A stretch of DNA of 33,732 nucleotides from the IMG/VR virus record IMGVR_UViG_3300044617_001497, positions 1 through 33,732 of that record. One strand, given 5' to 3'. The DNA comes from a virus (Duplodnaviria > Caudoviricetes). The translations under genes and the position numbers were made by a program. The notes under the pieces are model-generated. The model searched no databases and was not told where the DNA came from. It saw nothing but the letters and a program-made list of their open reading frames with translations. Shown here one piece after another: positions 7,414-33,732 of the stretch (its first letter is position 1; each line of letters starts with the position of its first letter).

Positions 7414-7455
7414 AGTTTACAAATTTAATTATTATTATTTTAATATTCAACTTTT

Positions 7456-8835: not shown

Positions 8836-8858
8836 AGTTTTTTTATCGTTTAGTATTG

Positions 8859-8865
8859 ATAAATA
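8859..8865 (-). promoter_or_regulatory. TATTTAT putative phage promoter element
   Basis: CTATTTATC, 23 nt upstream of the helicase ATG. Confidence 0.45.
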
Positions 8866-8874
8866 GTACTAACT

Positions 8875-9318: not shown

Positions 9319-9321
9319 AAT

Positions 9322-10338: not shown

Positions 10339-10358
10339 TGTTTGATTATAAAATGTTA

Positions 10359-11587: not shown

Positions 11588-11623
11588 AATGTTTTTATTT
11601 AAATATAGACAATATATTTGTAC

Positions 11624-12313: not shown

Positions 12314-12316
12314 GAT

Positions 12317-12344
12317 AATAAAAACCCCAGCCTAAACTGGGGTT
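12317..12344 (-). terminator. Intrinsic terminator downstream of ssb
   Basis: Minus strand AACCCCAG-TTTAGG-CTGGGGTT followed by TTTATT. Confidence 0.75.
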
Positions 12345-12363
12345 ATGAATTGGTTATTAAGTA

Positions 12364-14264: not shown

Positions 14265-17200
14265 TTATTGATTCTTGAATTTAGAAACAAAATATCCTAT
14301 TACATTTTCAACTTTTTCTTCTAATTTTTTCTTATCGGCTTGAGCCAAATCGTCCCACACCTTATCTTCCAAATTAGATGTCCATAATAGAACGTTTGCC
14401 TTTGCCAACTTTTCTTTATAACTATTGTCGTCATATTTGTAACTACCAATTGCAATTACTTTTGCTTTGAATTTAGAAATAAAGAATTCGACAAACTTTT
14501 CAAACGAGTCAAATGATGCGTATGGAACATTTTTCTTTTGTCCCTTGTCGGCACAGAAGTACTTTTTATTAAAGTACGTTTGTGAGTCACCCCAAGGGTT
14601 TATGTCTAATGTTACACTAGCATAATTATGGTCATAAGATTTAAATGTTATTCCGGACCCAGTTTCTATAGATAAAGTTGCTAATATAAAATCAAATAAT
14701 TTATCTTTGTTTTGTGAACTTAAAGATTGTTTTTCAACTTGTTCGTTAATAACCTCAATTGCCTTATCGAAAGTAATTTTAGTTTCAACTGGAGTTTTGT
14801 TTGTGTATGATTCAAAAACTTTAACCAAATTTTCAGAACAATTTTGATTGGCCGTTGGTTGTATATTTGATGAATTGGCTCTATTAATTATTTCAGATTT
14901 TTGAGCCAATATATTATTTTGTTCTTGTATTTTCTTATCTTGTTCTTCAATTCTTTCCTGTATTGATTCTAATATTTTTGTTGTCAAAGATTGGAGTAGG
15001 TTATCAATTGCTGGAATACTATAGAAAGGTTGTCTTTGACCTTCAATAGTCGTATCAAAACCATTCTCACTAATTCTATGACTGACATGAGTAATCATAT
15101 AAGGTCCAGCAAACATAGGTATATTTCTCAAATTAAAATACATTGTTGGTTGTATAAGTGCGTTACCCATCATATCTATAGTACATTTATAACTTCTGTT
15201 TTTATAAACGTTATATAGTGAAGCGCTTTGTGATGCTCCAGATCTATTTCGATATAGGTTGGCCATTTGAGTTAACATTTGTTCAGACTCCGCGGTTGGT
15301 TTTCCTGGGTCTTGAGCAATATCAAGACTTTTAAATATTTGCTGGTTTTGTGGTCCAAAATCTACGTTAAACCCAACAACTTTATTTGATTTATCCCAGT
15401 TAGTTTTTCCTTCTTGATTTTCTAAAAGTGGGTTGTCAGATGCCCTTCTTAAATCAAAAGCATCATCTCTATATCTATAATCAATGTTATCATTCATCGC
15501 CAAATGTGTACTTGGTACAAAAGAATAAACGGCCAAATATTTGGCTGTGGTTTCTCGATAATCAACATTTAAAAATGTCCCAAACAAAGTGTTTGCAAAT
15601 TCTAAAGTTCCTTCAGGTCTTGGTGTTGGGTTTTTGGATGCGTCTTGTACATTATAAAAATTAGCATAAGATGGGAGTATAAATGATGTAAATCTATTAT
15701 CTCTAAATATTGTTTCAACAATACCTAACATTGTATTTTTATAATCCATATATTCAATCAAGTCCTTTGCTTTGAATATATCTACATATATTTTTTGACC
15801 TATATCTCTACTAGCCCTATCAACAGTTAATACGTCCTCAAATAAAGTTTTGGTTTTGAAATCCCCTCCTGATATCCATTTATCATTAATTCCCTTTAAA
15901 GTCTCCCACAACTCAAGTCTGGTTTGTTCACCTTCAAATTCTGTATATTTTACCCCAGGATTTTCAGTGGTAACATTAATAGGACCTATTTTCGCTTTAA
16001 CCTTTGTGATTATATCACCAAGAATTAAGTTTATATAAGAATCACTACTAGTTTTATAACTTGTCATTCCAGAGAAAAACTTATCTTGATTCATTGTTGG
16101 GTCAGTTAGCTTTGCTTGAGCATATATTTTAATTATAGGTGCAAATAATTTAACATTATTTTCATTAAAATTCATATTCATGTCAACAAAGAAATCTGTT
16201 ATATATGAACCATTGTCGCTATATTTTAATTGTGGTATTTCTGAAAAACCTACATATGTTTCTAAAGATGCCCAAGTTTGTGGATTTGATGATTTTGACA
16301 CCGCCAAAGTCGTAGTACCTCCGCTTGTTGGTAAACTATTTTGAACATAAGTTTCCCATGTGTATGGATCTACTATATTTTGTGGTGCAAAACTGTAAAA
16401 CAATTTTCTATCAAAACTTGAAGGGTTACCGTACTTGAAAGTAATCTTATAATTCATAAACTCGTCAATTAGTTTTTGAATGTTTGTTTTTTGATCTTCA
16501 GTTATTTTTGTGACTAATGTAGATCCTGATAGATTAGATGGTTTAGGTATTACAAACATCTCTCTCATTAATGCTTGGAAATTTTCATTTCTTTGTTCTA
16601 TCTGGGTATCTTCTTTTCTAGGTACTGTAATACTTTCAAAATCATAAATTGATTTACTGAAGTTTAAAAAGTGAGTTTCAAAAAGGTCTAGAATTTCCGG
16701 AGTGAACGTTGTAAATAACTCATCAATTTTAGAATATTTACTTGAATCTCCGTGTAATGAATAATTTTCTTGCCATTCAGTGTTGTTTAAAATTTGTTTT
16801 GTATATTCGTCTGGTTTTGGTTTTGTAATTTTACTAACATCAAAATATCCATATTGTGGTGCTTTCCAAAATAGTCTAACAGAACCATTATGTAATGCGG
16901 GATTATTTTGTAAATTAATAGTCTGTGTCCCAGCTTGATTGAAACATTCTTGACTTGCCTGATTAACGTTAGATCCCAATGATGGTAATGCAAATGCGGA
17001 TTGACCGTCGTCGGATAAAACATAACAACTCCAAGGATAAACCGTTAATGATCTATTTGGGTTTAAAATATCAAATCCTTGAGGTTTTACAATTACAGAT
17101 GAATTACTCAAAACCATTTTGAAATTTGTATTTAAAGCGTTTTGAATGTCTTGATTTGAATACCCTCCGATTGCCTTGTTTGTAACAACAAAATTCTTAA

Positions 17201-20200
17201 TACCAGTATTTGCATTATTTTGAATTGGTGTTGTTATATATAAACCAGAACCTCCAGTTGTTCCGGAAACTTGACTAACAATAATTGTGTTCAATGCCAA
17301 GGTTGATCCGGACAGAGCGGTTCCTGGTGTTATAGAGTTAGAAGATGTGTTAACTATTTCTACTTTATCTCCAGAAACAAAATAAGTTCCGGTGATTGTT
17401 CCTGTTTGTTTGAAGATACTTTTACCCTGAAAGAACACATTGAAGTCATTAATAAGTTTCGGGTAAAATCCTGTGGTAATCTGATTGAGATTTGCCGATA
17501 TATTTTGAGTGTTTTTATCTAAAACAATATCATAATTTTGACCATCAACTATTACTTGATATGTTGTTGTGGGTGATTGTGTACTAGGATCATAGTTATC
17601 CAAGTAGTCCGTATTTTTCCAAACCGAATCTAAAAAATCAACTCCTGTGGATTTGAATGTCTTATACCTATTCCATATAGATCCGTATTTTAAAACCCAC
17701 GAATATGGTAAATTATGAATTGCTGCAAACTTTTTAAATGATGGTAATATATAACTTAAATTGGTTATAGAATTATCCGAGTTTAATTTTTTATATTTTT
17801 CTTTTAACGTTGCGAGTGGTAAACTATTCAAAAATAAGTAAGCCGCTGCTTTATATGGTGATTTATCAGCCAAATTATACCTAAAGTTTTGAATACCTTC
17901 TTGTATTGCATTTGCGAAGAATGGTGTGTTGAATATTGATGTTGTCTGTTCGTTATAAACATTACCACTATAATTCACATAAAATATTGATCCTTCGGTT
18001 GCATATTGTTCTTCTATAATTCTTCCCTTATAAAAGCTTGTTAAATTTTGTAAATTTAAAACTTGATCAAATGTTTTAGTTTTGTAATTAAAATTTGAAA
18101 TTGGTGAAATATCATCTTTATTACTTATAACTTTGTTATCTGTTCTATATTTTAAAGTGTCACTAGTTTTGAACGTATCGACACTTGACTGAACGGAATT
18201 ACCATTTGCCAAATAATTTTTACACCAGTTTAGATCTGTTAGTGGGTATAAATCTGTGAAGTCATATTCTTCATTTATAATATCTCCACCAAAGAATGAT
18301 TCCACGGGAGCGTTATTTTCTAAACCTAATTTAGGAACTGATGTATTATCTTGCAGTATGTCAGACTTATATAAAGCATATGAAACATTAGTATCATTTT
18401 TAATATATGGTGTGTTAAAAATACCTCTTTCGTAATTGTTCCATGATGATCCTTTACCGTCATTTGATATTTGTTTCAAATATGATTGGTAAACTGGTGC
18501 ATTAATATTCAATTCTTTAATTTTTTTAGATAGAATTGGATTACTGGTTCCTAATGCCGTCATCATATTTGTAACTTCAGACTCAACAACTGAAGTTTGT
18601 ATGTTATTTATTGTGATTGATTTTCTGTTGAATTTTGAATAATAAGAGTTTAAAATCATTCTCTCATATATTTCATAAAAGAATTTTACTTCTTCTGTAT
18701 TAGAATAAACGTCATTACCAATTGTAAATTCAATTGCGTTGAAACTGAATCTTTGTGGTTGAGTTAAATCATTATTTGCATCTCCAAAGTCAAATTGTGG
18801 GTTTTCTCTTTCGACATAACCTCTTAAAAATTCTTCAACAAACTGAACTTCCGGCCAAATTTCAGGAACAAAAGCATTTATTTTATTTGCCAAAACATAA
18901 TCACCAGGATATTTTAATTCGTACTTTTCTTTACCGTCAATTAAATTTTCAACAATAAGTTGAGGCCATGGATAAATAACTTGATTTGTTTCATTGTATT
19001 TGTAATCAACACTTTTCTGTGTTGATCCTGAATCAAAAATCGCTCTTTTTCTATTTTCGTCATCTCTTAAAGTCCACGCAACTGTGTGAACATCATCCAT
19101 CAATCTTAAAAAGGCTTCTCCTTGTGCAAAAAATACTGCTAATATATTTTTAATAGTTGGCTCAAACCCCAAACCATTATTTTTATCTTTAAACTGTTCT
19201 GTTATTTGTTTGGTTAACCCTTCCTCTATTTCTTGTTTTTTGGCAATAAACTTTTCATCATTCTTTTTAATAAGGTCTTGGAAGGAATTTGGTCCCGTAA
19301 AAAATAATAATCCTGGGTAATTTGTTAATTTGTTTCCGTTTATTATTTCTTCTTGAATTGTTTTTTTGGATGTATCATATTCTTGGGAACCGATTTCTAA
19401 TTGTTTTCCCGTTCTTTTATATAAAGTTTCTCCAATATTGATATCACCTAATGTTACTTTTTTGAAAAAGGTTTCAATCTTGACTGGGATATTACCCAAA
19501 TCTTTTCCTACCGCTTTGTTTGCTTGTAACTCGTTCAAGTATTTTTTTAGAATACCATCTAATTCGGTTATCGCTTCGTTTTGTTTTTGGATATCGCTAA
19601 ACTCGGGCTTAAACTTATATAATATCGTTTTGTCTGTATTATTTTGAATGAATATATTTTCATAATCTAACCATTTTCTTGACCAAACACTTGTTGATGA
19701 TGCCAAGTAAACATCTTTAGAGAAGTCCGCAAGTTTTTCAGAATATAATTTTAAATCATTAAGTACATCTAGATTTTTTTTTCTAAAGTTGTTTTCTATG
19801 TTTGTGATTAGTTGACCTAATCTTTTTTTCAATTCTAAAATTGTAATCTCTGGAAATGTTTCATCAATTAATCCTTTAGCTTTATACTCCGAATACAATT
19901 CTTTCATTTTTTGGTATCCACCGCTACTGTATTTAACAGAAGTGTTCGTACTACTATTAGAAGAATTGGTACTTTGTGTATTTGCGGAATCAATTTTGAT
20001 TCGATACATTTGAGGGACTGCCATAATTTGACCCCAAGTAACATCCGCCAATACCGTATATTTGTAGGTGTAAAACTTACATTGTATTCTAAAATTATGA
20101 GTTGATGGATCAAAACTTGCGTTGAACGTCTGTAACATTAATGGTATTCTTACTGCCTTCCCTAGATAACCTTTTATTGTTAAATGAAATAGTGGATATG

Positions 20201-20762
20201 GTAAATTAAAAAAGGCCGCATATGGTGAATCGTTTCCGGCTTCAAATAATGCCCGACCTTTTACGTCTTCCATAGTTATGTTTACTTCAGGTAAAAATTC
20301 AGTTCCATAACTTATGTTAATTTGATTTAAACCCAAAAGACCATTATCAACAGATCCTGGATCTCCATATGAAGTAAGAGTTTGTTTTATATAATAATCG
20401 TTGTCTTTAGTTCCGTATTTAACTTGATCTAATCTTGGTTGATTTTGACCTTTGCCTTGTAATGTATTTTTACCTGTTAGTTCATCAGTATCTGCAGTGT
20501 CGAGGAAATCTTTAAACCCTGGATTTAGGAAATTAATTTTTCCAACCGATATAGTTTGGATTTGTGTGTTCTGTGGAACTCCTAGTGCCAATTTTGTTCT
20601 TGGCGTTACCGAACATTCTAAATTTGCGTAGTAAACTAGATCTTCATGTTTGATCAATCTTTCTTTAATAGTCCCATCTTCAGCAATTACTTTGTTCGGG
20701 TCAATTACTGATATGTTTTGATAATCAAATTCAACTAATATATTTTCAGAGTTATTTACCAT
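14265..20762 (-). CDS. Giant baseplate hub protein (T4 gp27 / P2 gpD-like) with C-terminal glucosaminidase (GH73)-like domain
   Basis: 2165 aa. N-terminal GLNQINISY...PEVNITMEDVKG and late YKCTIDMMGNALIQPTMYFNL...GPYMITHVSHRISENGFDTTIEG resemble the two ends of a gpD/gp27 hub. C-terminal LATLSIETG...HNYASV...YASFDSFE resembles lysozyme-fold GH73. It sits after the LysM gene, the usual hub position. Confidence 0.7.
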   Translation of the reverse strand: MVNNSENILVEFDYQNISVIDPNKVIAEDGTIKERLIKHEDLVYYANLECSVTPRTKLALGVPQNTQIQTISVGKINFLNPGFKDFLDTADTDELTGKNTLQGKGQNQPRLDQVKYGTKDNDYYIKQTLTSYGDPGSVDNGLLGLNQINISYGTEFLPEVNITMEDVKGRALFEAGNDSPYAAFFNLPYPLFHLTIKGYLGKAVRIPLMLQTFNASFDPSTHNFRIQCKFYTYKYTVLADVTWGQIMAVPQMYRIKIDSANTQSTNSSNSSTNTSVKYSSGGYQKMKELYSEYKAKGLIDETFPEITILELKKRLGQLITNIENNFRKKNLDVLNDLKLYSEKLADFSKDVYLASSTSVWSRKWLDYENIFIQNNTDKTILYKFKPEFSDIQKQNEAITELDGILKKYLNELQANKAVGKDLGNIPVKIETFFKKVTLGDINIGETLYKRTGKQLEIGSQEYDTSKKTIQEEIINGNKLTNYPGLLFFTGPNSFQDLIKKNDEKFIAKKQEIEEGLTKQITEQFKDKNNGLGFEPTIKNILAVFFAQGEAFLRLMDDVHTVAWTLRDDENRKRAIFDSGSTQKSVDYKYNETNQVIYPWPQLIVENLIDGKEKYELKYPGDYVLANKINAFVPEIWPEVQFVEEFLRGYVERENPQFDFGDANNDLTQPQRFSFNAIEFTIGNDVYSNTEEVKFFYEIYERMILNSYYSKFNRKSITINNIQTSVVESEVTNMMTALGTSNPILSKKIKELNINAPVYQSYLKQISNDGKGSSWNNYERGIFNTPYIKNDTNVSYALYKSDILQDNTSVPKLGLENNAPVESFFGGDIINEEYDFTDLYPLTDLNWCKNYLANGNSVQSSVDTFKTSDTLKYRTDNKVISNKDDISPISNFNYKTKTFDQVLNLQNLTSFYKGRIIEEQYATEGSIFYVNYSGNVYNEQTTSIFNTPFFANAIQEGIQNFRYNLADKSPYKAAAYLFLNSLPLATLKEKYKKLNSDNSITNLSYILPSFKKFAAIHNLPYSWVLKYGSIWNRYKTFKSTGVDFLDSVWKNTDYLDNYDPSTQSPTTTYQVIVDGQNYDIVLDKNTQNISANLNQITTGFYPKLINDFNVFFQGKSIFKQTGTITGTYFVSGDKVEIVNTSSNSITPGTALSGSTLALNTIIVSQVSGTTGGSGLYITTPIQNNANTGIKNFVVTNKAIGGYSNQDIQNALNTNFKMVLSNSSVIVKPQGFDILNPNRSLTVYPWSCYVLSDDGQSAFALPSLGSNVNQASQECFNQAGTQTINLQNNPALHNGSVRLFWKAPQYGYFDVSKITKPKPDEYTKQILNNTEWQENYSLHGDSSKYSKIDELFTTFTPEILDLFETHFLNFSKSIYDFESITVPRKEDTQIEQRNENFQALMREMFVIPKPSNLSGSTLVTKITEDQKTNIQKLIDEFMNYKITFKYGNPSSFDRKLFYSFAPQNIVDPYTWETYVQNSLPTSGGTTTLAVSKSSNPQTWASLETYVGFSEIPQLKYSDNGSYITDFFVDMNMNFNENNVKLFAPIIKIYAQAKLTDPTMNQDKFFSGMTSYKTSSDSYINLILGDIITKVKAKIGPINVTTENPGVKYTEFEGEQTRLELWETLKGINDKWISGGDFKTKTLFEDVLTVDRASRDIGQKIYVDIFKAKDLIEYMDYKNTMLGIVETIFRDNRFTSFILPSYANFYNVQDASKNPTPRPEGTLEFANTLFGTFLNVDYRETTAKYLAVYSFVPSTHLAMNDNIDYRYRDDAFDLRRASDNPLLENQEGKTNWDKSNKVVGFNVDFGPQNQQIFKSLDIAQDPGKPTAESEQMLTQMANLYRNRSGASQSASLYNVYKNRSYKCTIDMMGNALIQPTMYFNLRNIPMFAGPYMITHVSHRISENGFDTTIEGQRQPFYSIPAIDNLLQSLTTKILESIQERIEEQDKKIQEQNNILAQKSEIINRANSSNIQPTANQNCSENLVKVFESYTNKTPVETKITFDKAIEVINEQVEKQSLSSQNKDKLFDFILATLSIETGSGITFKSYDHNYASVTLDINPWGDSQTYFNKKYFCADKGQKKNVPYASFDSFEKFVEFFISKFKAKVIAIGSYKYDDNSYKEKLAKANVLLWTSNLEDKVWDDLAQADKKKLEEKVENVIGYFVSKFKNQ

Positions 20763-21077: not shown

Positions 21078-24000
21078 TTATAAGAATGTTACTTTACCAT
21101 TAAAGGTTTTTTTATTTTTATTTGTATTAATTGTAGAATACGTTTCTTTAAGTAATTTTCTGTTATCTTTTGTGTTACTATTTTCTTCTGTTGTGTAGTA
21201 TAATTTTGTTTCGAATTTTTCAATTTTATATTTTTTGAATTTTTCGTATTCTGGTGTTTTTTCGTACTTGTCGAAAATTTCTTTTTCTTTTTTATATTCC
21301 TCATTGAAGTTAAATTTCAGTTTTTCACACGTTGCTTGAATTAGTTTTACAAGATCTGTGTTACCTTTAACTTTTTCTGTTAATAATTTATCAACAAATG
21401 CATTATACTTATCATCGTTTGTAAATGTTTGTGACATTACCATATAAAATCTTCTAGTATATGTGTCTTGAGAAAATAAAACCCATGTTGGGTTGAAAGA
21501 AAGTCCTTGATCTGTTAAAGCTTTGTTTGGGTCTAATATTTTATTCTCTAGTATACTTTTGTTATATAATGTGAAAGCACTTGCGGTTTCACTAGGATAG
21601 ATCCTTATCATATTTTCAAAAACATTAGTCCCTCCGGGTATTAATTCTGTGTTATAAACAAGGTATTCTCCGGTGTCCGTTTTGTAACCATCAATTTTAT
21701 TAATTACTAAATCCAACTCTTTAAAGGTCTGTATATAATCTTCTTGGTATTTAACTATTTCATTTATTGCTCCGGTTACCGCTTGATCCATTTCGGCCTC
21801 TTGATTCAAAATGATATCAAACAAAACATTTTCCACATCACGTTTTGTTTGTTTTGACCATTCATTATTACTATCTTCAATTGCCTTTAATATAGGATTA
21901 TTTTTGTCGGTCACATCTTTTAACGCCTGTTTAAATAATTTTCCGATACTACCTTGATAATCAGATGGTTTTCCAATAATTTCTATTTTATCAGAACTGC
22001 TTTTGTAATAATTTAAAACACCTTCTTTATAATTTCTATCTTCCAAAACAAGTTGAGATATTGGGTAATTGGTAACTTCATACAGTTTTTTGATTTGATT
22101 AAAAATTGTTGTGAAATAATTATTTGTTTTAGTTGAAAGTTCTTCAAATATTGCGGTATATTCTGTTTCACCCGTCATAATTTTTCCATCATTATAATAC
22201 TCTGTCGTTAATATATTTCCAATTGTCGATCCTCCTTTTTCACCAGCATCCTGGTTATTTATTGCGGCACTATTAGACGGTACAACATTAGCCTTACCAA
22301 CAATTTTTGCAACCATACCTTCATCCCTTTCTTTTGTACTTTCTGTTGCAACCGCCCTTTCATCATAAATTTCTGTATTAGCATAATAGTTAAATGATAA
22401 TGCGTTTTGAAGTTGTGCTACCGGTCCGGCTAATCCATGTCCACCAATAAAATCAAATCCCAAGGTAATTTTTGCCAACATAGGTTGGACTCCGATACCT
22501 TCCGGATTAATATCATATAATAATGGTTCATAAGTTATTGACAATTGATTTGGTACTATTTTAGTATGGTAAAAATCTCCAATTCTCAATACTAAAATTG
22601 GTGGTGTACCAAATGAGGTATTTCTCGCATCGTTATATTTCGGTTTACCGTCTGGTCCGATAACTGGTATTGTTTGTCCTGGTCTTACACATTGATTCAA
22701 AAATGTTAATCTAGCATTCAAACCTTCAGGTGTCATTGAGTGGAAAGTCGGATTGAAAAACTTAATTTTGTCTTTTAATGATGCATAAACCGTAGGGTTT
22801 GTGATTTTAATTACTTCAAAATAGTCGCATTCAGAAAATAATTTTCTTAATATTTTTTTCGAGATTCCTTCTTTTACTCTTTTTTTAACATCAATATCAA
22901 CATCATCGTTTTGTCTTGGTGGTTTCGGTGGTGGTGTACATCCAGAATTTATACAATCTTCTAGTGTTTTAAATTCTCCTGTCGCAGATTGCTCACACTT
23001 TCCATCAATACATGCATACTTTGTAGATATCTGTCCACAGTTTTTATCACACTCCTCTTGAGTGGTATAATCACCAGTTCCGTCCGCAACTTTTTGACAA
23101 GGTTGACCTGGAGTTACACATTTGAAGTTTTTTAATTGTTCATTTCTTTTACATCCTCCTTGTTCTGGTGGTGCATTTTCACATTCACTTTTACTTGCAA
23201 AAGTACCATCTTTTGATTGTATACATTTACCATCATTATTAGGTCCACATTTCCACTTGGGTTCTTTAGCGTTTGATAATTTAATTTTTGCAAAAGCAAC
23301 TCTTCTACATGCCATAGCCGGAATACTATACCATTGTGAATTATTAGTAACTTTATTAAGACTTACGTCTTTAATATCTGTTGTACAATTAATTGGGCTA
23401 GCCAAATTGAAATCTTTATCTACAGATTCAACTTCCGTGTTCCCTTTTGAAGAAACTAAATCTCCAGTTTTTGGTATAACGGCTGTCTCACCATCAGGTC
23501 TAAATGTTATAATTAATTTAGCTTCATCCCTCCATTGTTTTACCGTTTTGTCACCAATTTTTTGTGTATTCAACCAATTTTCTACAGTACTATTTCTTCT
23601 TTTAGATAAGTTTACGTTGTAATTTTCTTTTGCCGGTGCCGACGCGGAACCTATCAATTCCAGTGTAACTGTTGCTTCTAAATCTACCAAAGCCTTTTTA
23701 AGTACTTTAGGGACAAAATCATTTTGTATTTGTGAAAAATTACCAATTATTACGTCATCAAAAAATTTACTTATACCAGCACTAGAAAATTTTTCTGATC
23801 CAACAGCAACTTCTATAGGTGCTGATGTTCCTTCATATGTTGACCTTCTACCTAGATATTGAGAATACCAGTCAGTGAATGGACTTGGTACCGATGTTAA
23901 ATTAGAAGATTTACCAATTGGGTAGTCATTGTCAAAATAAAAACCAAAACCCAAATACGAATTTAATTCTGACTCAACGGATCCAATATTTATGTCCAAA

Positions 24001-26456
24001 TTATTAGTTGTGTTAGTCTCTTGTGTTCCAGCTCCATTATTCCCACCTGAAGTTCCGGTTCCTGAATTTGCATTCCCATCAATTGTATTTGCACCTCCGG
24101 TCGACGCATTTTGAGCATAACTTATCGATCCAAGTATATCAACTTCTTCTTCTCTTGTTAATTGTGGATTTTGTAATAGTTCTTGATATGTATATAGTTC
24201 GTTTATAGAAAGTTGGTTAAATTTAAGTCCTAAATCATATAAATCATATTTCACGCAACCAGCAAAGAAAGAATCCATAATAGAATCTACTTGTTCTTGA
24301 GACATATTTGCTAATTGTTTTTCAATGATAGTGTTCATTGCCGCTGGATGGTCAACTACTACAGTCCAGTTCAAACTTCCCGTCCTTGTTGTATTTTTAT
24401 ATGTATAGATAGGTTCAGGTCTGCCAAGGAAAGATGTTGAGTTCCATGATGCGGTTGATGAATCATTGAATTTTAAATCATAAGGTGGGAACCACATGAT
24501 TCTACCTCCATTTGGTCCCTTTTCACAAATTGGTAAATCATCATATGTATAACCAGGTTCACTTGATGTTCTCCAAGCAAGATTCTCAAGTGAAAACATA
24601 TATTTTTTAACTTTACCATTCTTAATGTTTGTGGATTCTTCACCTCGTAGTGGTGCAATATTCAAATTATATGTGTTATCAAATATTGAATAACTAAACT
24701 TTCTACCAGATTCAGTTATACCATCTGTTTTTTGTAAGTCACCATAAGTAAGATAAGGAGTGTCTTTTTGAAAGACTCTACAATATTCCGCACCTACTTC
24801 AGTACCATCGATACTAATTGTTTCTGAATTTGTAACACTATCATAATAAGCAACAACTCTGGAACCTTTAGTCATTTCCTTATATCCATCATTGAATACT
24901 TTTGAAACTTGGTTAATAGCGTTTCCAACGTGTTGTAATCTTCTTACACCCGTTACATTATCTGCGGATTCAATTAATTTTTGTGTGTTATCTAAAATTG
25001 ATCCAGGTTTGAACTCAAACTCTGTTGAATCTGTATCTTGATTAAATTCCGCCTTAACTGAATTAAATTCAGCATCTTGTGGTTGTACTGGGTCTCCACC
25101 TGGTTTAACATGAAAACCTATGTTTTCTTTATACTTTGGTGATAACCAAACAAATTGTCCCGCAATTCCACCTAAATTAGTATAGGATTTACCCGCTAAA
25201 CCAAATTTTATTTTATCAATATTACCTTCATATAGTTGAGCCAATTCAGACGGACCATAAACAGGTGCTTGTGTTTGTTTACCAAATCTATCAACTGGTA
25301 TCTCATTATCTGGCGAGTTTATTGTTGATGGTTCAGCCTGATCACTACCAACATAATATCCTCCACCTTGAGTTGTGTTATTACCTAAAAGGTTATTGAT
25401 TGCTTCGGTTACTCCAAGTAATAAACCTTTATTGTATTTTGGTCTATAAATGTTGTAATCTAAACTTTTAAATAAAACAGACTTTTGACCATACCCGGTA
25501 TTTGCGATAAAAATTTCGGATGGATTTCTTGTTTTGTTAAGTATTGGACCAAGTAATCCTCCGGTCAAATTATTTACAACACCAAGAGCGTTTTCTGTTT
25601 GTGGTGATAATACTTGATGGTTTTCATCAAAATAATCTCCTGGTATTGGTGATACAGGAAAATAACTTCCTGTTAATCTATTTGCAAATGAAACAGCCAA
25701 AAGTAATGGATTTTCTGGAACTGTAATTTTCCAATTTTTTCCTATCAGTGGTTGTTGTCCGGTGGCAACTAATGACGCTTCAAATGGATCTTGTAAATTA
25801 TCTAGTTGAAATACATTAGATATAATTTGTTGTTCCTCAAATGCAATTCTTGCTTTGAATTCATCTCGAAGTGCGATCGCACCTCTTTGAGCCAGTTGTG
25901 AATCCTGTGAAAGTAAACCTACCGACCCTTGTGGGTTATCATCTATTAATATTTGAAATGGTGTATAAGTTGACGGTAAAAAAACTAAAGGTACACCTTC
26001 ATTGTCAGAATAAGGAACAAAGTATTGTGCATTTTGAATTACATCAGTTACTATGTATAAATCTTTATATCCAGTTTCAGGTCCATAAATATTTTTAATG
26101 TATGCAGCATCAATAAAAAATTCATTTACTAATACTACATCCGCATCGTCTTGACCATATTCTCCTTGGTTGGAGTCGACCGGTAGTGGTGCTCCATTAG
26201 TAGATATTATATTATTGTAACCACCATCTGGACCATAAGCATTTAATGGGTAAAGTTGATTTGCTAAAACCGTTGTACCTATTAAATCATTTGGTGAATC
26301 AATAACTGAACTATCATTTAATGGTGAAACTTCATAATTAACATTACCAGATGGTGGTGAAAACGCACCTGTAACTGTATAAGGTGGAAGATTTCTGTTC
26401 ATCAAAGAATTTCTGAACGATGAACTGGCATCAAATGATAAAGTAGTATCAGACAT
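21078..26456 (-). CDS. Giant tail-tube-initiator-like baseplate protein (gp48/gp54, P2 gpU-like fold) with inserted OmpA-like domain and Cys-rich repeats
   Basis: 1792 aa. WFPPYDLKFNDSSTASWNSTSFLGRPEPIYTYKNTTRTGSLNW and PPILVLRIGDFY...LSITYE...PMLAKITLGF are two halves of a tube-like fold. IGSASAPAKENYNVNLSKRR...CRRV is OmpA-C-like. Position between tape measure and LysM gene is canonical. Confidence 0.7.
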   Translation of the reverse strand: MSDTTLSFDASSSFRNSLMNRNLPPYTVTGAFSPPSGNVNYEVSPLNDSSVIDSPNDLIGTTVLANQLYPLNAYGPDGGYNNIISTNGAPLPVDSNQGEYGQDDADVVLVNEFFIDAAYIKNIYGPETGYKDLYIVTDVIQNAQYFVPYSDNEGVPLVFLPSTYTPFQILIDDNPQGSVGLLSQDSQLAQRGAIALRDEFKARIAFEEQQIISNVFQLDNLQDPFEASLVATGQQPLIGKNWKITVPENPLLLAVSFANRLTGSYFPVSPIPGDYFDENHQVLSPQTENALGVVNNLTGGLLGPILNKTRNPSEIFIANTGYGQKSVLFKSLDYNIYRPKYNKGLLLGVTEAINNLLGNNTTQGGGYYVGSDQAEPSTINSPDNEIPVDRFGKQTQAPVYGPSELAQLYEGNIDKIKFGLAGKSYTNLGGIAGQFVWLSPKYKENIGFHVKPGGDPVQPQDAEFNSVKAEFNQDTDSTEFEFKPGSILDNTQKLIESADNVTGVRRLQHVGNAINQVSKVFNDGYKEMTKGSRVVAYYDSVTNSETISIDGTEVGAEYCRVFQKDTPYLTYGDLQKTDGITESGRKFSYSIFDNTYNLNIAPLRGEESTNIKNGKVKKYMFSLENLAWRTSSEPGYTYDDLPICEKGPNGGRIMWFPPYDLKFNDSSTASWNSTSFLGRPEPIYTYKNTTRTGSLNWTVVVDHPAAMNTIIEKQLANMSQEQVDSIMDSFFAGCVKYDLYDLGLKFNQLSINELYTYQELLQNPQLTREEEVDILGSISYAQNASTGGANTIDGNANSGTGTSGGNNGAGTQETNTTNNLDINIGSVESELNSYLGFGFYFDNDYPIGKSSNLTSVPSPFTDWYSQYLGRRSTYEGTSAPIEVAVGSEKFSSAGISKFFDDVIIGNFSQIQNDFVPKVLKKALVDLEATVTLELIGSASAPAKENYNVNLSKRRNSTVENWLNTQKIGDKTVKQWRDEAKLIITFRPDGETAVIPKTGDLVSSKGNTEVESVDKDFNLASPINCTTDIKDVSLNKVTNNSQWYSIPAMACRRVAFAKIKLSNAKEPKWKCGPNNDGKCIQSKDGTFASKSECENAPPEQGGCKRNEQLKNFKCVTPGQPCQKVADGTGDYTTQEECDKNCGQISTKYACIDGKCEQSATGEFKTLEDCINSGCTPPPKPPRQNDDVDIDVKKRVKEGISKKILRKLFSECDYFEVIKITNPTVYASLKDKIKFFNPTFHSMTPEGLNARLTFLNQCVRPGQTIPVIGPDGKPKYNDARNTSFGTPPILVLRIGDFYHTKIVPNQLSITYEPLLYDINPEGIGVQPMLAKITLGFDFIGGHGLAGPVAQLQNALSFNYYANTEIYDERAVATESTKERDEGMVAKIVGKANVVPSNSAAINNQDAGEKGGSTIGNILTTEYYNDGKIMTGETEYTAIFEELSTKTNNYFTTIFNQIKKLYEVTNYPISQLVLEDRNYKEGVLNYYKSSSDKIEIIGKPSDYQGSIGKLFKQALKDVTDKNNPILKAIEDSNNEWSKQTKRDVENVLFDIILNQEAEMDQAVTGAINEIVKYQEDYIQTFKELDLVINKIDGYKTDTGEYLVYNTELIPGGTNVFENMIRIYPSETASAFTLYNKSILENKILDPNKALTDQGLSFNPTWVLFSQDTYTRRFYMVMSQTFTNDDKYNAFVDKLLTEKVKGNTDLVKLIQATCEKLKFNFNEEYKKEKEIFDKYEKTPEYEKFKKYKIEKFETKLYYTTEENSNTKDNRKLLKETYSTINTNKNKKTFNGKVTFL
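22938..23255 (-). repeat. Three degenerate 4-Cys protein repeats
   Basis: WKC..C..GTFASKSEC..C / FKC..C..GDYTTQEEC..C / YAC..C..GEFKTLEDC..C; 12 Cys in about 106 aa. Confidence 0.85.
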
Positions 26457-26521: not shown

Positions 26522-28585
26522 TTACTCTGGTTTTCCTGGGGCACTTGCCGTGTACATTCCTCCAGCCCCACCAGGTATTAAACCATTTCCTGTTTTTAAT
26601 TTATTAAGCTGGTCAAGAACCATATTAATATTTGTTGTATTTTTACCACCTTCAAAATATTCGGTTAACGCTCTTGACATTAATTCTGTTAGTGCTTGAT
26701 TTTTAGAATCTGGATCAAGTTTAACATTTAGATCAATTTTAACGTTTTCATTTATTTCTAATGGTTTAAATTCTATTTTACCCATTTCTTTAATGTTCGT
26801 TATTTGGTTGGTAAAAGTTTGAACTGTATTATTAAATGTCTCTGTATTTGCGTTGAAATTTGAAAGTGGGTCAGTTTCAGATCCTCCCATTCCAAATAAA
26901 TTTGTTAAACCTCCGAGTCCACTATTAAATAAATTACCTAACGTATCGGTAATTGTAGAAAAATCAAAATTTGATAAATTTCCAAGATTAGATAAACCTC
27001 CTAACATTGATGTAAAATCAATGTCTTTTATTTTATTAATTATATCTCCAAAGTCACTAATCCCATAATTTTCAAGAGCTTCTTTAATGAACTCTTTTAC
27101 TTCACCAGCAACAGCGTCGGTTCCCTCCCTATATGTTCTGGTACTTACATATCTTCCACCGATTAATCCTGGATCCGTTTCTTTATCTCTAAATAAAGCT
27201 TCTCTTAAACTAGTTGTCGATAAATCATAAATACCTTTTGCAGTTTGACTAGAACTCATACCATAACCAATTGCTTTAAAAAATTGATCAAATTTGGCAT
27301 TTAATCTTTCGGTTTGATTAAGTTGTTCTCTGGCTAATTCTTCCATGGTTTTAGCCTGACCTTTTTGTTCTTCTTTTAAACTTGTGATTTGTTCTGCGGT
27401 TAACTGTGATGCTTCAACAATATCATATTCACCAGTAAAATTACCACGTTCGTCAACTTGTTTGACCTTAACTTCCGCAATTCCTTCTTTGTTAATTGTT
27501 GCCATAGTAGCAATTAACTCCCTATCCTCTTTAGATGCGATACCCTCTGGGAACTTAATTTGTTTTAATTTCATATCAAATTCCGCGGCATGAAGAGCCA
27601 TCTGTTGTAACTCACCATTAGCATATCCCAATTCTTTCCCTATTTCATTTAACCTTCTTTTTTCACCGGGTAATATTTCGAACTGACCTAATTCTTTATT
27701 AAACCTAACAAAGTCTTTGGACATTTCTATAATTTGATTCTGTAACTCCGCAGGATCATTTTGTGATAAGTCCATTAATCTTAATGGATCAAGAAGTGCG
27801 TTAGCTGATACTCCTAATCTTTGAAGTCCTGCAGCTAGTTCAATCGCCCCTTCCGGATTGAAGACTTTATCAACTATTGTAAATATTTTTGTCATGTCCA
27901 CGCCAAGTCTTGCTGCTTGTGCCGACATTTTTGCCAAACCTTTAATTCCTCCTTCGAAATTATATATGTTCATTTTTTCAAGGTTAGAGACAACTCCAGC
28001 AGAAACCGCAGCAACTGAAACACCAGCACTTCTGGCAATTTCAACAACTCCTTCCATGGTGTCTCCAACGTTAACAATTGAAATACCAACATCTCTAAAC
28101 TTTTCTGCTAATGTTCCTACGTTTTGTCCGGTAACACGAGCGGTTGCCGCCAATTCTGTAAGTTGTTCATTTGAAATTGTAACTGTTGTTTCGTATTCTC
28201 CAGCAAGGGCATTAAATGTTTTGGAAACATCGGTAACCCCCATACCTAGTTCTGCGAATCTAGAAGCGTTATCTGCAACCATCAATTCAAACTCTCTACC
28301 TCTTTCGATTCCTAAACCAAGGGAGTTTCTAATTTGTGTTGATTGTTCGTCTAGAATTCTTGTTCTTTTGTATATTTCTGAAGGAGCAAATAAAGCTTCT
28401 GTTTGACCACTTATCCAAGCCCCAATACTACCGATATTACCTTTTAATAGATTATCTGTAACCCCCTGTGAAAAGGCCTTACCAATTTTGGTGCCTGACT
28501 CGTAACTTGCAGCTACGTCAGCATCAATTAAACCCTTTACAATATTGGCTTGATTTTCGGTATTTCCGTCGCTTAAAAACATCAT
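26522..28585 (-). CDS. Putative tape measure protein
   Basis: 687 aa, Ala/Gly/Leu-rich and helical (GIKGLAKMSAQAARLGVDM, GAIELAAGLQRLG); lies between the chaperone and the tube-initiator gene. Confidence 0.75.
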   Translation of the reverse strand: MMFLSDGNTENQANIVKGLIDADVAASYESGTKIGKAFSQGVTDNLLKGNIGSIGAWISGQTEALFAPSEIYKRTRILDEQSTQIRNSLGLGIERGREFELMVADNASRFAELGMGVTDVSKTFNALAGEYETTVTISNEQLTELAATARVTGQNVGTLAEKFRDVGISIVNVGDTMEGVVEIARSAGVSVAAVSAGVVSNLEKMNIYNFEGGIKGLAKMSAQAARLGVDMTKIFTIVDKVFNPEGAIELAAGLQRLGVSANALLDPLRLMDLSQNDPAELQNQIIEMSKDFVRFNKELGQFEILPGEKRRLNEIGKELGYANGELQQMALHAAEFDMKLKQIKFPEGIASKEDRELIATMATINKEGIAEVKVKQVDERGNFTGEYDIVEASQLTAEQITSLKEEQKGQAKTMEELAREQLNQTERLNAKFDQFFKAIGYGMSSSQTAKGIYDLSTTSLREALFRDKETDPGLIGGRYVSTRTYREGTDAVAGEVKEFIKEALENYGISDFGDIINKIKDIDFTSMLGGLSNLGNLSNFDFSTITDTLGNLFNSGLGGLTNLFGMGGSETDPLSNFNANTETFNNTVQTFTNQITNIKEMGKIEFKPLEINENVKIDLNVKLDPDSKNQALTELMSRALTEYFEGGKNTTNINMVLDQLNKLKTGNGLIPGGAGGMYTASAPGKPE

Positions 28586-28595
28586 ATCTTAAATG

Positions 28596-28602
28596 ATAAA
28601 TA
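28596..28602 (-). promoter_or_regulatory. TATTTAT putative phage promoter element
   Basis: 10 nt upstream of the tape measure ATG. Confidence 0.5.
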
Positions 28603-28608
28603 TTTCAT

Positions 28609-28761
28609 TTAAGTTTTTTTATTTTGTTCAATTAATTTATCAATGATGTATCTTCTTTCGTAAGTTGGCATACGATAAAAGTCCGTATAGGAAATGTGTA
28701 ACATTTTTGCTAGAAAAATATATTCTTCTAAAATATATCCTCTATGTTCAGAAGAAAGGCC
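28609..28761 (-). CDS. gp51-like / gpT-like chaperone extension, probably expressed by +1 frameshift from the upstream gene
   Basis: Not in the ORF track. The +1 frame reads GLSSEHRGYILEEYIFLAKMLHISYTDFYRMPTYERRYIIDKLIEQNKKT* (50 codons) and fills the gap before the tape measure gene. MPTYERRY resembles the gp51-type MPxxER motif. It overlaps the upstream stop and its only ATGs are internal. Confidence 0.7.
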   Translation of the reverse strand, partial: GLSSEHRGYILEEYIFLAKMLHISYTDFYRMPTYERRYIIDKLIEQNKKT

Positions 28762-29512
28762 GAAAAAATTCCACCCCAAAGGCAACGTTCACGTTGACTC
28801 TTTCTCCTGACGGGGCGGTTACTTCTTTTGTTAAATCTAATCTGGGTTCGTTTTCTAATACGAATGTCCTGATATGTTTAGAGTCCATAATTGGCATGGT
28901 CTCAATAAATTTTGCAATATCTCCTCTGTCTGTACTACCATTAATATCAACAATCATTTTGTTTAATCTCAAAGTAATAATTGGTGATACCCTTCCTTGT
29001 GGATATGAATCTAATATAGATTCTATTTCAATAGTGTCTCTCATGGTTAATGGTTTTATTTTTACAGTCGCCTTACTTTTAGGTAGAGTTGTTGTAAATG
29101 TCCCATCGTTATCTGGTAATACTTTTGTTTTTTTAATGTTCATCTCATCTAAAAAGACTGATGTTTCAAATGGTCTATTTGTTTGTGGATCTGTAACCAT
29201 TAATTTATATTCAGGACCAAATGATGTGTTTCTTAAAAATATAAGAATAGCCTCAATGTCTCCATCTAATAATTCTTCGGGTCTTAAATCTGGTTCATAT
29301 AACTTACTTCTTAATAAAGGTAGAATAATACTTTCTTTAATTGTTTTTCTTGAATCCATGTTTACAAGAATGTTTTCATCGGCCGCAGTTAAATAACCAA
29401 TTTTTACATTTTTCTTTTTTGACGGATAAAAAATACCACCCGATGGTAATGACACAACATCGTGGGGAAGATTAAAATTCATTTGACCGTAGTCGTTTAC
29501 GTTATTGTCCAT
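28748..29512 (-). CDS. Tail/baseplate hub assembly chaperone, T4 gp26-like
   Basis: 254 aa. Duplicated motifs VSLPSGG...IGYLTAADENIL and TTLPKSKATVKIKPLTMRD; LLDGDIEAILIFLRNTSFG; ends FGVEFFRPFF. Lies between tube and tape measure genes. Confidence 0.8.
   Translation of the reverse strand: MDNNVNDYGQMNFNLPHDVVSLPSGGIFYPSKKKNVKIGYLTAADENILVNMDSRKTIKESIILPLLRSKLYEPDLRPEELLDGDIEAILIFLRNTSFGPEYKLMVTDPQTNRPFETSVFLDEMNIKKTKVLPDNDGTFTTTLPKSKATVKIKPLTMRDTIEIESILDSYPQGRVSPIITLRLNKMIVDINGSTDRGDIAKFIETMPIMDSKHIRTFVLENEPRLDLTKEVTAPSGERVNVNVAFGVEFFRPFF
28760..28768 (-). other. Candidate +1 ribosomal frameshift site TTT_TTT_CGG
   Basis: UUU_CGN-type motif four codons before the stop; slipping TTT to TTC enters the gp51-like frame. 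Confidence 0.6.
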
Positions 29513-29575
29513 ATATAGATTTGTTTTACCTTAAATATAATTTCACATTATTTTTAGTAAACAATTGTGGACAAC

Positions 29576-29610
29576 AAAAAAAATCCCTAATACCGAAGTA
29601 AAGGGATTTT
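29576..29610 (-). terminator. Intrinsic terminator after the tail tube gene
   Basis: Minus strand AAAATCCCT-TTAC-TTCG-GTA-TT-AGGGATTTT followed by a T run; cUUCGg loop. Confidence 0.8.
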
Positions 29611-29633
29611 GAAAAAAATATTTTGAAGTATTT

Positions 29634-30122
29634 CTAGTAAACCAAAATACAACGGTCCATTTGCAAAGTCGCTGAAATGTCGGCAATTGCATCTTGTGAA
29701 TAAGATAACGAACCAAAGTTAGCGTCAGTTAAGAAAGCTCCTTCTAAAATCCATTTCTCAACAACAACTCCGGTTGGGTCTAACATTTCAAGGTCCACAT
29801 TCTTTTTGTAACCTGCGGCATAACCCATACGACCTGTTACAGATTCTGCACATAGACGTACCCACTCCATAATTGCTTGAGACGCTGATGGTCCAATTGG
29901 GTCTCTAAACTTAACATTAATCGAATTCCATACGAATCTACCCGCAACATAAGTTGAAGTATTTAGAAATTGAATTTCAGTTGAGTTGATTTTGATTGTG
30001 GGTCTTGATGCACTTTCCACAAACCACTCGTTGATACCTAAACTTGAAGGAAAACGTAAAATAAACCTGTTCTGTCTTTTAGGTTCATACGGAACTGGCA
30101 TTTTCATTAATAAATCAGCCAT
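29634..30122 (-). CDS. Tail tube protein, T4 gp19-like
   Basis: 162 aa. YEPKRQNRF, YVAGRFVW, GYKKNVDLEMLDPTGVVVEKWILEGAF. Confidence 0.92.
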   Translation of the reverse strand: MADLLMKMPVPYEPKRQNRFILRFPSSLGINEWFVESASRPTIKINSTEIQFLNTSTYVAGRFVWNSINVKFRDPIGPSASQAIMEWVRLCAESVTGRMGYAAGYKKNVDLEMLDPTGVVVEKWILEGAFLTDANFGSLSYSQDAIADISATLQMDRCILVY

Positions 30123-31201: not shown

Positions 31202-33732
31202 TTAGATATTTTCAAAAGACGCTCCAGTTGGTGTGATAAAGAAAGTAATATCAATAAACTCGAGTGATCTTGTAGGTTTAATATAAATTTTACCTACTAA
31301 TTGATTTTTATCTAAATCTTCTGTGTCATTAGATACTGTTACTCTAAAGTCATAAAGACCTCTGTCTCTTCTAATTGCATCTAATATCGGGTTTACAGCA
31401 TTTAAGAAGTCTTGTCTTACTTGTTGATCATTTTGATCAAACAACAATCTTACTGATACTGCGGAAATTAGTTTTCTTGCCTGAAGAAGTAATCGTCTAA
31501 CGTTGATTCTATCAAGTGCAGATTCTCTAACTTGAAGAGTTTTATTACCCCAAATTACCGTACCTACATCTGCAAACGTTGCGATTGGGTTAACTCTACC
31601 AAGATATAGAACATCTCTATCTTGTTGTGTCAACTTCTTACGAGCTTTAATTGAGTTAACAATACCACGAGTATAACCAGCCGCTGCGAACCAAGGGAAC
31701 GCGATGTTGTCGGTTAATGCTAGGTTTCTTGTAACTTCAGCAGTTGCAGGAATGTACAATTGTGTATTGTTTACATTATCTCTAGTTAATACCCATGGAT
31801 AATAAGTTGCCGTATAGTTAGAATCAATTCCAGTTTCTTCTAAAATATCAACAGCTTCTTGAGGGTAAATCATATTATCTCCTTCAGTTGTAGTTGCCAC
31901 AAACATATTGTAATCTGGAAGTGTTGCGATATATAGTGAATCCGCTCTTTCTTCCTCAACCATACTAATTGCTTGTTCTACAAGGTCAGAGTTATTTTGA
32001 ATATCAATACCAGGTGTTACAAATACGTTAATGTTAACTGCTTCTGGGTTGGCAAATGTTCTTTGACCCAACAAGTATGCGTAATAGTCAGTATTTCCGT
32101 ATTCAATAGTTCCGTCCCCAATTGATATTTGTTTAAATAATCCATTACCCTTACCTTTAGGGAATCTTAATGATGGACAAGCCCCGTTCAAGAAACCACT
32201 TCTACCAAGTGCAAATTTATCAGCGTTTGTTCTATATTCTCTATAGATGTCCCAACCATCAAATCCACCATATACAAACACTGTGAATTTTCTAGCGATT
32301 AGTCTGTAATATGGATCATCAGTATTTTCTGGTTCAGAAGAGAATGGTGCGGAACCAACTTCATAAGCTGGTGTACCACTTGATGCAAAACCTGATGAAA
32401 TAGTAATACCACTTGCGAATTGATCCATGTGGAAACCTTTTGTTTTAAAGTTCCAATCAGTACCATCTCCATTACATAAATCAAATGGTTTAACTTTTCC
32501 TTTATATTGGAAGAAGTCAGAGTCATAACCCCAGTAAGAACCTAGACCTAGATATGTTTTTCTTACATTATCTCCAGCACTTACAAATGCGTCGTCTTGT
32601 CCAGTTGTTGTTCCAAAAGGTGGGTTGTAAACTTGTTCACCTGGAAGGAAGTATTTAGTTTTATACACTGGGTAAGGTGAGTTACCAGCTGGATATTCTC
32701 TAAATGTATAACCTTCAAATCCACAAGGAATCGCGTCTACCGGTGCATCTGGGTTCATTTCAATTAAAACATATTTTGATTTCAACTCATATTCACCATC
32801 TAAAGTACCAATTTTTTTAGCGATAAAATTATTTTCAGATGGATTCATCGAACAATTAGTGAATTTTTCTAATACAACTGGGTTAGCGTCGGTATCAAAA
32901 TAATCTCTTACTAATACAGTAAATGTTTCATTATTAAATGATAAGTCTGAAATTGAAATTTTAACTTCGGTGTTTGCTGAATTTCCATCAGAAATTGTAA
33001 AGAATTTAAATAGGTTATAAACTTTAGAACCTCTTAATTCGGAAACAATCCATGGTGTACTTGGAGATTGGAATCTTTCCATGTACCATCCAATAGTTTG
33101 AGGGTCATTACCTTGAGCTCCTTGAGCGGATACAACCACAGGACTTAAACCTCTGATAAAACCTTTATTCCATCCATAAGTTAATAATGTACTATATAGT
33201 TCTTCTACCATTAGAGGAACTGTAGTTCTTGGTTTGTCAAAGTTTCCTCTACCAAATACTTTACTGATGTTGTTAGCGTCTGACACACTTAATGAAACTT
33301 CAAAGTTAAATACAGTTCCATCGTTATTGATAGCTTGAATTTCAAATGGTAAGAATGGGTTTTTCAAAACACCATTGTATGTTCCAGTCATATCATAAGT
33401 TACTTGTGATGTACCAGTTACTTCGAAAATAGGATTAATTTCGTCTGAATAAGTTGATAATCCTCTACTTCTTAAAGTACAAACAACTAAATCATCATAT
33501 TGTGTAAATGATGTACCAGTGTAATAGTAAATCATACCAACCACTGTACCTGCATAACAATCAATAACAACAGGTGCTGTTGTTGTTGTAGTTGTAATAG
33601 GGGTTGGTGTAACACAAGGATTAGTAGTTGTTGTTGTAGTTGTTGGAGGAACTCCAGTAGTAGTTGAAGTTGTAACTGGATTCAAATGAGTGATCCCCGT
33701 TACAGTTGTAAAGAACGAATAACCAGTATATT
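31202..33732 (-). CDS. Contractile tail sheath protein (T4 gp18-like), 5'-truncated
   Basis: C-terminal sheath domain YTATYYPW, PWFAAAGYTRG, VNPI, IWGNKTL, SALDRINVRRLL, IKPTRSLEFI. The frame stays open past the track's TTG at 33685 (YTGYSFFTTVTGITHLNP) to the window end. Confidence 0.95.
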   Translation of the reverse strand, partial: YTGYSFFTTVTGITHLNPVTTSTTTGVPPTTTTTTTNPCVTPTPITTTTTTAPVVIDCYAGTVVGMIYYYTGTSFTQYDDLVVCTLRSRGLSTYSDEINPIFEVTGTSQVTYDMTGTYNGVLKNPFLPFEIQAINNDGTVFNFEVSLSVSDANNISKVFGRGNFDKPRTTVPLMVEELYSTLLTYGWNKGFIRGLSPVVVSAQGAQGNDPQTIGWYMERFQSPSTPWIVSELRGSKVYNLFKFFTISDGNSANTEVKISISDLSFNNETFTVLVRDYFDTDANPVVLEKFTNCSMNPSENNFIAKKIGTLDGEYELKSKYVLIEMNPDAPVDAIPCGFEGYTFREYPAGNSPYPVYKTKYFLPGEQVYNPPFGTTTGQDDAFVSAGDNVRKTYLGLGSYWGYDSDFFQYKGKVKPFDLCNGDGTDWNFKTKGFHMDQFASGITISSGFASSGTPAYEVGSAPFSSEPENTDDPYYRLIARKFTVFVYGGFDGWDIYREYRTNADKFALGRSGFLNGACPSLRFPKGKGNGLFKQISIGDGTIEYGNTDYYAYLLGQRTFANPEAVNINVFVTPGIDIQNNSDLVEQAISMVEEERADSLYIATLPDYNMFVATTTEGDNMIYPQEAVDILEETGIDSNYTATYYPWVLTRDNVNNTQLYIPATAEVTRNLALTDNIAFPWFAAAGYTRGIVNSIKARKKLTQQDRDVLYLGRVNPIATFADVGTVIWGNKTLQVRESALDRINVRRLLLQARKLISAVSVRLLFDQNDQQVRQDFLNAVNPILDAIRRDRGLYDFRVTVSNDTEDLDKNQLVGKIYIKPTRSLEFIDITFFITPTGASFENI
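33572..33679 (-). repeat. Thr/Pro-rich low-complexity segment within the sheath
   Basis: PVTTSTTTGVPPTTTTTTTNPCVTPTPITTTTTTAP: 20 Thr in 36 residues. Confidence 0.9.

Follow-up and report, generated by a model that had tools for sequence, protein, structure and literature searches.

A probable +1 ribosomal frameshift in the gp26-like tail chaperone gene of a freshwater phage clade, with a candidate stem upstream of the slippery site

The locus described here raises the question of how an open reading frame without an evident start of its own, overlapping the 3' end of a gp26-like gene in the +1 frame, is expressed. The window, i.e., the whole stretch of DNA analysed (33,732 nucleotides), is a linear virus record (Caudoviricetes; IMGVR_UViG_3300044617_001497) with a GC content of 32% and a CheckV completeness estimate of 11%, and its sequence was found in lake and freshwater metagenomes. 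The original prediction, made from the letters alone, was that a +1 programmed frameshift joins the two frames into an equivalent of the lambda G/GT chaperone pair.

The tail gene neighbourhood and the predicted proteins

The genes on the minus strand follow the order sheath, 304-aa gene, tail tube, gp26-like gene and 687-aa gene. The presence of the sheath gene (31202..33730, minus strand; PF17482, phrog_23 E 7e-47), whose 5' end lies beyond the window, indicates a contractile tail. The tail tube gene (29634..30122, minus strand; phrog_4542 E 4e-27) is directly followed by the gp26-like gene (28748..29512, minus strand), as in G/GT-type chaperone pairs. The 687-aa gene directly downstream (26522..28585, minus strand) gave no informative Pfam or PHROG match; by its position it would encode the tape measure protein, and the gene in this position is annotated as tape measure in the HSE3, immuto and LIS04 records.

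The gp26-like gene would encode the short chaperone form (TAC-N) of 254 aa and has a full-length profile match to the T4 gp26 family (PF12322 E 2e-11, phrog_150 E 2e-13). Its structural model has a mean pLDDT of 84.8, and its BFVD matches are gp26-type hub proteins. The top three of 48,161 PDB representatives were 3FGX (Z 5.5, rmsd 4.4, 89 aligned), 3KLU (Z 5.3, rmsd 3.6, 84 aligned) and HK97 2OB9 (Z 5.2, rmsd 3.7, 90 aligned), all of which are named as tail assembly chaperones in PMC9603447. The match covers the C-terminal half of the model (residues ~132–230) with modest Z values, unrelated rows starting from 3.3, and a Foldseek search of the model against the PDB returned no match at E 0.001. 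The modelled structure suggests that the gp26-like product is a tail assembly chaperone with the TAC fold.

At the 3' end of this gene the minus strand reads GGG GTG GAA TTT TTT CGG CCT TTC TTC TGA, the TGA being at 28750-28748. The slippery site, TTT TTT C, occupies 28762..28768 (minus strand), with Phe249 at 28768-28766 and Phe250 at 28765-28763. The +1 frame is open from a TGA 8 codons upstream of TTC onwards (…ST*TLPLGWNFFGLSS…), and the +1-frame ORF (28609..28761, minus strand) runs for 50 codons from GGC (28761) to TAA at 28611-28609, all its ATGs being internal. If TTTC is read as a single Phe step, the predicted junction is VAFGVEFFGLSSEHR and the ORF forms the C-terminal extension (TAC-C) of a long form of 250+50 = 300 aa. 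The sequence, frames, lengths, codon counts and coordinates given in the original prediction were all reproduced; the lengths of its 254-aa (ORF 28748-29512) and 300-aa products were recomputed, and CGG was indeed uncommon (6/343 Arg codons, against 266 AGA, in 19 window genes with 9,900 codons).

No indel in the T run was found in the contigs obtained from two DNA runs, where two contigs cross the site, or in one low-depth (depth-3) RNA-library contig from Logan, which has six T across it. An assembly artefact was therefore rejected: the spanning contigs are free of indels and T6 is present in all relatives.

The assignment of the +1 peptide as gp51-like stands only in part. There was no Pfam or PHROG match (phrog_634 included), and the window-clade profile gave no significant match to T4 gp51. 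What stood was a weak, transitive link to cyanophage gp51: the profile matched the Immutovirus-type ORF at E 3e-12, which in turn leads to gp51 at E 3e-5, and a direct comparison with cyanophage gp51 (hhalign) gave E 0.0026 and a probability of 11.5%, better than 15/15 shuffles. The cyanophage gp51 profile itself matches residues 209-245 of T4 gp51 (E 1.6e-8 in a two-sequence search). Complex prediction pairing the +1 peptide and the tube protein gave a score of 0.00, which counts neither way.

Several other features of the window were observed. Behind the gene in the tape measure position lie genes for proteins of 2165 aa (14265-20762) and 1792 aa (21078-26456) with no informative family match, the latter with short Cys-rich repeats near residues 1080-1190. 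Replication genes at 5554-13230 (class II-type ribonucleotide reductase, DnaB helicase, 5'-3' exonuclease, UvsX-like, gp32-like and glycosyltransferase) are inserted between the tail and baseplate wedge genes. The motif TATTTAT occurs 11-50 nt upstream of many gene starts (18 minus-strand and 7 plus-strand matches in the window), at 28596-28602 on the minus strand and in other leaders at 31137, 30172, 26492, 8865, 5498, 4672 and 2303; it follows the stop of the +1 ORF in 154/156 relatives and is a candidate late promoter or translation signal of the window clade. Shine-Dalgarno (SD) sequences are absent before all 19 window genes, the leaders being A/T-rich, as in Bacteroidia. A related 248-kb contig (locus L433) belongs to a Flavobacteriaceae bin, and this bin and the SD-less leaders are weak hints of the host.

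Conservation of the junction among relatives

A total of 256 loci were collected, from which 82 duplicates, 10 loci with too little downstream DNA and 3 short of the C-terminus were dropped. The remaining loci comprised 81 chosen by protein similarity and 75 chosen by a DNA pattern; because this pattern contains the site, the latter are not evidence for the site itself. GGG, TTT TTT and CCT were each found in 81/81 protein-selected loci, and the codon after TTT TTT was CGG in 74, CGC in 6 and CGT in 1. The +1 ORF had 49-54 codons in 80/81 of them, whereas the −1 frame had 5-40; it was likewise open in 75/75 of the pattern-selected loci. The one exception (L067) has a +1 ORF truncated by an internal deletion of ~43 nt in comparison to L066.

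This constancy differs sharply from the gene body. Among 50 representatives of <90% identity (median 62%), 0/73 conserved-residue codons before codon 222 were invariant. By parsimony on a tree of 120 sequences from both selection sets, four-fold codons of the gene body required at least 26 changes (median 37) and two-fold codons at least 9, compared with one change at G236, two at G246, one at P252 and none at E237, F249 and F250.

Past the zero-frame stop, the +1 frame contained no stops in 48/48 representatives, while the other frames contained 136 and 161, and the differences within the +1 ORF were biased to third positions (6697/4537/10168 in the 48 representatives); the +1 ORF is therefore real coding sequence. 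GAA or GAG precedes the U run in 143/143 junctions, and conservation of the +1 peptide starts at FGLS. From these sequence patterns we consider it very likely that the two frames are joined into one product.

The opposite view, in which a TTG (28785 or 28779) or an internal ATG, perhaps by translational coupling, starts the +1 ORF as a small gene of its own (cf. the annotation of cyanophage gp51), appears highly improbable. It would agree with the annotation of the +1 ORF as a small separate CDS in public records, with a TTG five codons before the site in 124/143 unique junctions and with the 41/143 that have an ATG no later than the site. However, this TTG is a by-product of TTT GGG and is absent or cut off by TAG in 19/143 junctions; in 7/143 a GTA GAR creates a +1-frame TAG two codons ahead of the site, 6/143 have no ATG, GTG or TTG as far as 12 codons past it, and in 13/143 the ORF is without any ATG. 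The early ATGs are scattered in position, the internal ones are likewise scattered and located after the conserved FGLS start, and the residues preceding the site vary between W, L, S and stop. No conserved start exists among the 143 junctions, so that the description of the overlapping out-of-frame ORF as start-less was upheld, and a separate gene would leave the invariant TTT TTT unexplained.

This reading corrects the annotation of a large myovirus group, of which approximately 1,800-2,100 stored IMG/VR stretches match the patterns. The predicted long chaperone is missing from public records, e.g., those of SP-15, HSE3, Mel-JY01 and the immuto phages.

Direction of the shift and the candidate 5' stem

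The +1 arrangement extends beyond the window clade. The Immutovirus-type set (83 examined, minus 12 duplicates and 5 short, with LR756508 set apart) left 65 loci, in which a +1 ORF of 73-106 codons was found in 65/65. Their sites read TTT TTT TGG (33), TTT CTT TGG (28), TTT CTA TGG (3) and TTT CTT TAC (1), the first TTT being the invariant element. The same layout occurs in RM378, SP-15, HSE3, GXN1, LIS04, Mel-JY01, QdP_Psa3 and LR756508 (RM378, SP-15, HSE3, LIS04 and Mel-JY01 are cultured), with U6 in RM378, SP-15 and LIS04, TTC TTT CGT in HSE3 and GXN1, and TTC TTT CCC TAA in QdP_Psa3. A −1 layout is found in S-PM2, phiM12, RsoM2USA, PA5oct, GAP32 and Atu_ph07, and in 53/53 loci of the cyanophage type (80 examined, minus 26 duplicates and 1 short), all with T TTT TTC; in LR756511 the small ORF has its own ATG, and no matching ORF was found in L436. 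The gp51-like ORF is unannotated in the public records of PA5oct (L340), RsoM2USA (L339) and LIS04 (L054).

The two directions differ in the base before the U run, which is T in 0/65 Immutovirus-type but 53/53 cyanophage-type loci, even though codons for these residues most commonly have T in third position in the former. On a tree of 39 proteins, 2 changes account for the +1 label, against a mean of 10.3 for shuffled labels (0/500 as low), and the starred branches alone force only 1; the direction has therefore switched at least once. Within this one protein family, −1, +1 and two-gene (T4) arrangements all occur; a tail-chaperone shift would need a particular ratio but no particular direction.

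For the window clade, a −1 shift was rejected, the −1 frame being short and unconserved. A lambda-type X XXY YYZ heptamer with a −1 extension was not found, as the −1 frame closes in 5-40 codons (81/81) and the base preceding the U run is never T; nor was a prfB-type arrangement, the stop lying 4-5 codons downstream of the site. The most probable reading of the sequence data is a +1 ribosomal frameshift at UUU_Y, giving predicted chaperones of 254 and 300 aa. Most ribosomes would produce the 254-aa form, and a minority would slip +1 on UUU UUU C and produce the 300-aa form. Peptidyl-tRNA-Phe would re-pair forward at UUU_Y; we infer that the P site is more likely on the first UUU, or that both Phe tRNAs move together, the first UUU being favoured because it is invariant in the window clade and a fixed element in the sister clade. 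A slip on either Phe would give the same junction, E-F-F-G-L-S-S. If the pair behaves like that of lambda, the short form would cover the tape measure protein, and the recruitment of tube subunits would fall to the rare long form.

UUU_Y is formed by the first Phe codon in the Immutovirus type and LIS04 and by the second in HSE3 and GXN1, and P-site re-pairing there is the single rule that accommodates most of the family. According to PMC5009743, UUU_Y sites in bacteria are prone to +1 shifting without an adjacent stop. The +1 site has apparently been relocated to CCC in distant members: in L426, L429 and L430 only a CCC site fits (AAT CCC AGT), and QdP_Psa3 has TTT CCC TAA (L344:2160-2178). 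One further exception, L434, keeps the +1-frame ORF with the junction GTT TTC CTC and no in-frame UUU.

A candidate stem precedes the slippery site. Its 5' arm, RCCCCR in codons 233-234 (28811..28816, minus strand; GCC/ACC in 140/143 junctions), is complementary to its 3' arm, YGGGGT in codons 245-247 (28773..28778, minus strand), which overlaps the SD-like GGGGTG (28777-28772, minus strand). Four pairs are kept in 143/143 junctions, one is C-G in 140, A-U in 2 and mismatched in 1, and one is kept in 135/143. Three departures on one arm coincide with three on the other; the A-U swap counts as one compensatory event since L145 and L227 are sisters, and one locus breaks the covarying pair. The 52-nt window segment folds at −20.3 kcal/mol (z −2.7), and the pairing probability of the stem exceeds 0.5 in 48/48 representatives versus 156/480 synonymous controls; its mean is 0.43 once downstream sequence may also take part in pairing. 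An ungapped alignment of the Immutovirus-type clade gave no consensus stem, and Rfam on 28500-29700 gave two weak chance-level matches, none at the site.

The 6-bp stem ends 4 nt before the U run, which, with the first UUU in the P site, is one base before the E-site codon. Refolding behind the ribosome, this stem (RCCCCR/YGGGGU) would push it forward and block backward slips. In E. coli lysate, as reported in PMC6321510, E-site-adjacent hairpins raise +1 and damp −1 shifting; the hairpin there was engineered, had 12 bp and required a paused A site. The stem described here, if true, would be a natural case of this stimulation of +1 shifting on 70S ribosomes.

The stem loop contains GGA GAA (28802..28807, minus strand; GGA in 140/143, with 1 and 0 parsimony changes), which is as invariant as the slippery site and alters in the same three loci that change the stem. 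It might matter for the protein, act as an SD-like pause or engage in a second pairing; a pairing with the downstream TTC TTC in the minimum-energy window fold (z −1.1) showed no covariation in the 143 junctions. A terminator role of the stem and U6 was set aside, as it would cut inside the ORF and the loop has 32 nt.

The U6 of the window clade is also compatible with a −2 slip and with the deletion of one U by the polymerase, both left unconsidered by the original prediction. Phage Mu uses a −2 frameshift in its chaperone pair. Here, tRNA-Phe on the second UUU would move back two bases at a slow CGN, giving E-F-F-F-G and 301 aa in the same frame. U6 offers perfect re-pairing, which would explain the invariance of both Phe codons, and is also present in RM378, SP-15 and LIS04; CGG is rare, and L434 (GTT TTC) fits −2 better than +1. 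We nevertheless regard a −2 slip as unlikely, since it is impossible at TTC TTT C (HSE3, GXN1, L428 and QdP_Psa3), which permits +1 re-pairing, and at AAT CCC AGT (L426/429/430), and a stem on the 5' side reportedly dampens backward slipping (PMC6321510). Somewhat less likely still is stem-dependent slippage of RNA polymerase, in which the nascent stem next to the RNA-DNA hybrid would cause the loss of one U and ordinary translation would yield the same 300-aa protein. A precedent is the Roseiflexus IS630 T5C5, which drops one base if a stem loop folds on the 5' side (PMC5009743), and the distance from the stem end to the end of the U run, 10 nt, is about one hybrid length. However, the U run is short and the stem loop has 32 nt, relatives with TTT CTT, TTT CTA or TTC TTT have no homopolymer, and the one depth-3 RNA-library contig has six T, which is compatible with a minor form.

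Other explanations concern the stimulator alone. In prfB, three bases separate an internal SD from the P-site codon. The GGGGTG here has this spacing, ending 3 nt upstream of the first TTT, and it is also a stem arm; the original prediction proposed GGGGTG as an SD-like stimulator and a hungry CGG codon as the trigger. A +1 shift in which the stem is irrelevant and the stimulus comes from the rare CGG or from prfB-type base pairing between GGGGUG and 16S rRNA is doubtful in our view. The spacing, the invariant GGG (81/81) and the CGG in 96/143 junctions speak for it. Against the SD role stand the jointly invariant distant 5' arm with its A-U swap, the SD-less leaders of the window genes and the GGG in only 40/65 loci of the sister clade; moreover, Bacteroidia keep the anti-SD sequestered and still shift on prfB (PMC10798248), which would bear on this phage if its host belongs to that group. 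As for CGG, 47/143 junctions carry CGC, CGT or CGA, and the Immutovirus type has TTT CTT, CTA or TTT TGG with the first TTT invariant; the rarity of CGG is also a weak argument, since double coding requires the C to form UUC and the GG to specify Gly in the +1 frame. Returning to the stem, we tentatively propose a natural bacterial +1 frameshift in which a stem refolding behind the ribosome replaces the SD in an abundant SD-less freshwater jumbo-phage clade, and in which the same UUU-UUY site flipped between −1 and +1 within one chaperone family, marked by the base preceding the U run. The direction is directly testable in SP-15 (Bacillus subtilis), immuto (Flavobacterium) and RM378, which are cultured.

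Comparison with known systems

Vladimirov and colleagues reportedly recognized genes 26 and 51 as the TAC genes of T4. Their study (Vladimirov, Gautam and Davidson, 2022; Virology 566:9, PMID 34826709) identified the TAC genes of T4-like phages, according to the citing papers PMC12846349 and PMC10885494, which describe poly-T frameshift signals in the TAC-N genes of T4-like phages and separate short and long genes in some. The tie between gp26/gp51 and G/GT, of which the original prediction knew no earlier description, is the subject of that work as cited; the link is already published and is not what is new here. The G/GT equivalence itself is supported by gene position, by the start-less +1 ORF at a U run and by the TAC-like fold. 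What appears new from the sequence comparisons is the stem and the direction switch within one family, although Vladimirov et al. (2022) may list +1 members. The literature searched, which mostly excludes subscription papers, yielded no paper on gp26-like genes with a +1 shift or a 5' stem.

The TAC genes of T4-like phages share the protein family and the short/long logic with the window pair; the citing text names −1 alone, whereas the window has a +1 extension with a conserved 5' stem. A forward shift in a tail chaperone gene is likewise known from the halovirus HSTV-2, where a +1 G/GT-type shift is considered very likely (PMC5009743), and from PRFect on SEA-PHAGES annotations, with 350 forward sites among 2,718 positive ones and the joined genes mostly TAC genes (PMC10885494). 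These cases involve other protein families and hosts, and the portions of PMC5009743 and PMC10885494 that deal with them mention no 5' stem.

At the site itself, the bacterial UUU_Y +1 sites (argI, YopN-TyeA) and the UUU_CGU of influenza PA-X have UUU in the P site followed by a pyrimidine, as here. The PA-X precedent invoked in the original prediction is apt insofar as UUU is followed by CGN in 81/81 protein-selected loci, but the closest precedent is the bacterial UUU_Y, and the sister clade has TGG there. Unlike these sites, the window site is conserved across a phage family, may use the first or the second of two neighbouring codons and is preceded by a candidate natural stem. In comparison to lambda gpG/gpGT, the overlapping ORFs between the tube gene and the putative tape measure gene, the start-less second ORF and the predicted chaperone fold (HK97 2OB9 among the top matches) are alike; lambda employs tandem −1 slippage, whereas the window gene would shift +1, with a predicted chaperone about twice as long (254 aa) and a contractile tail.
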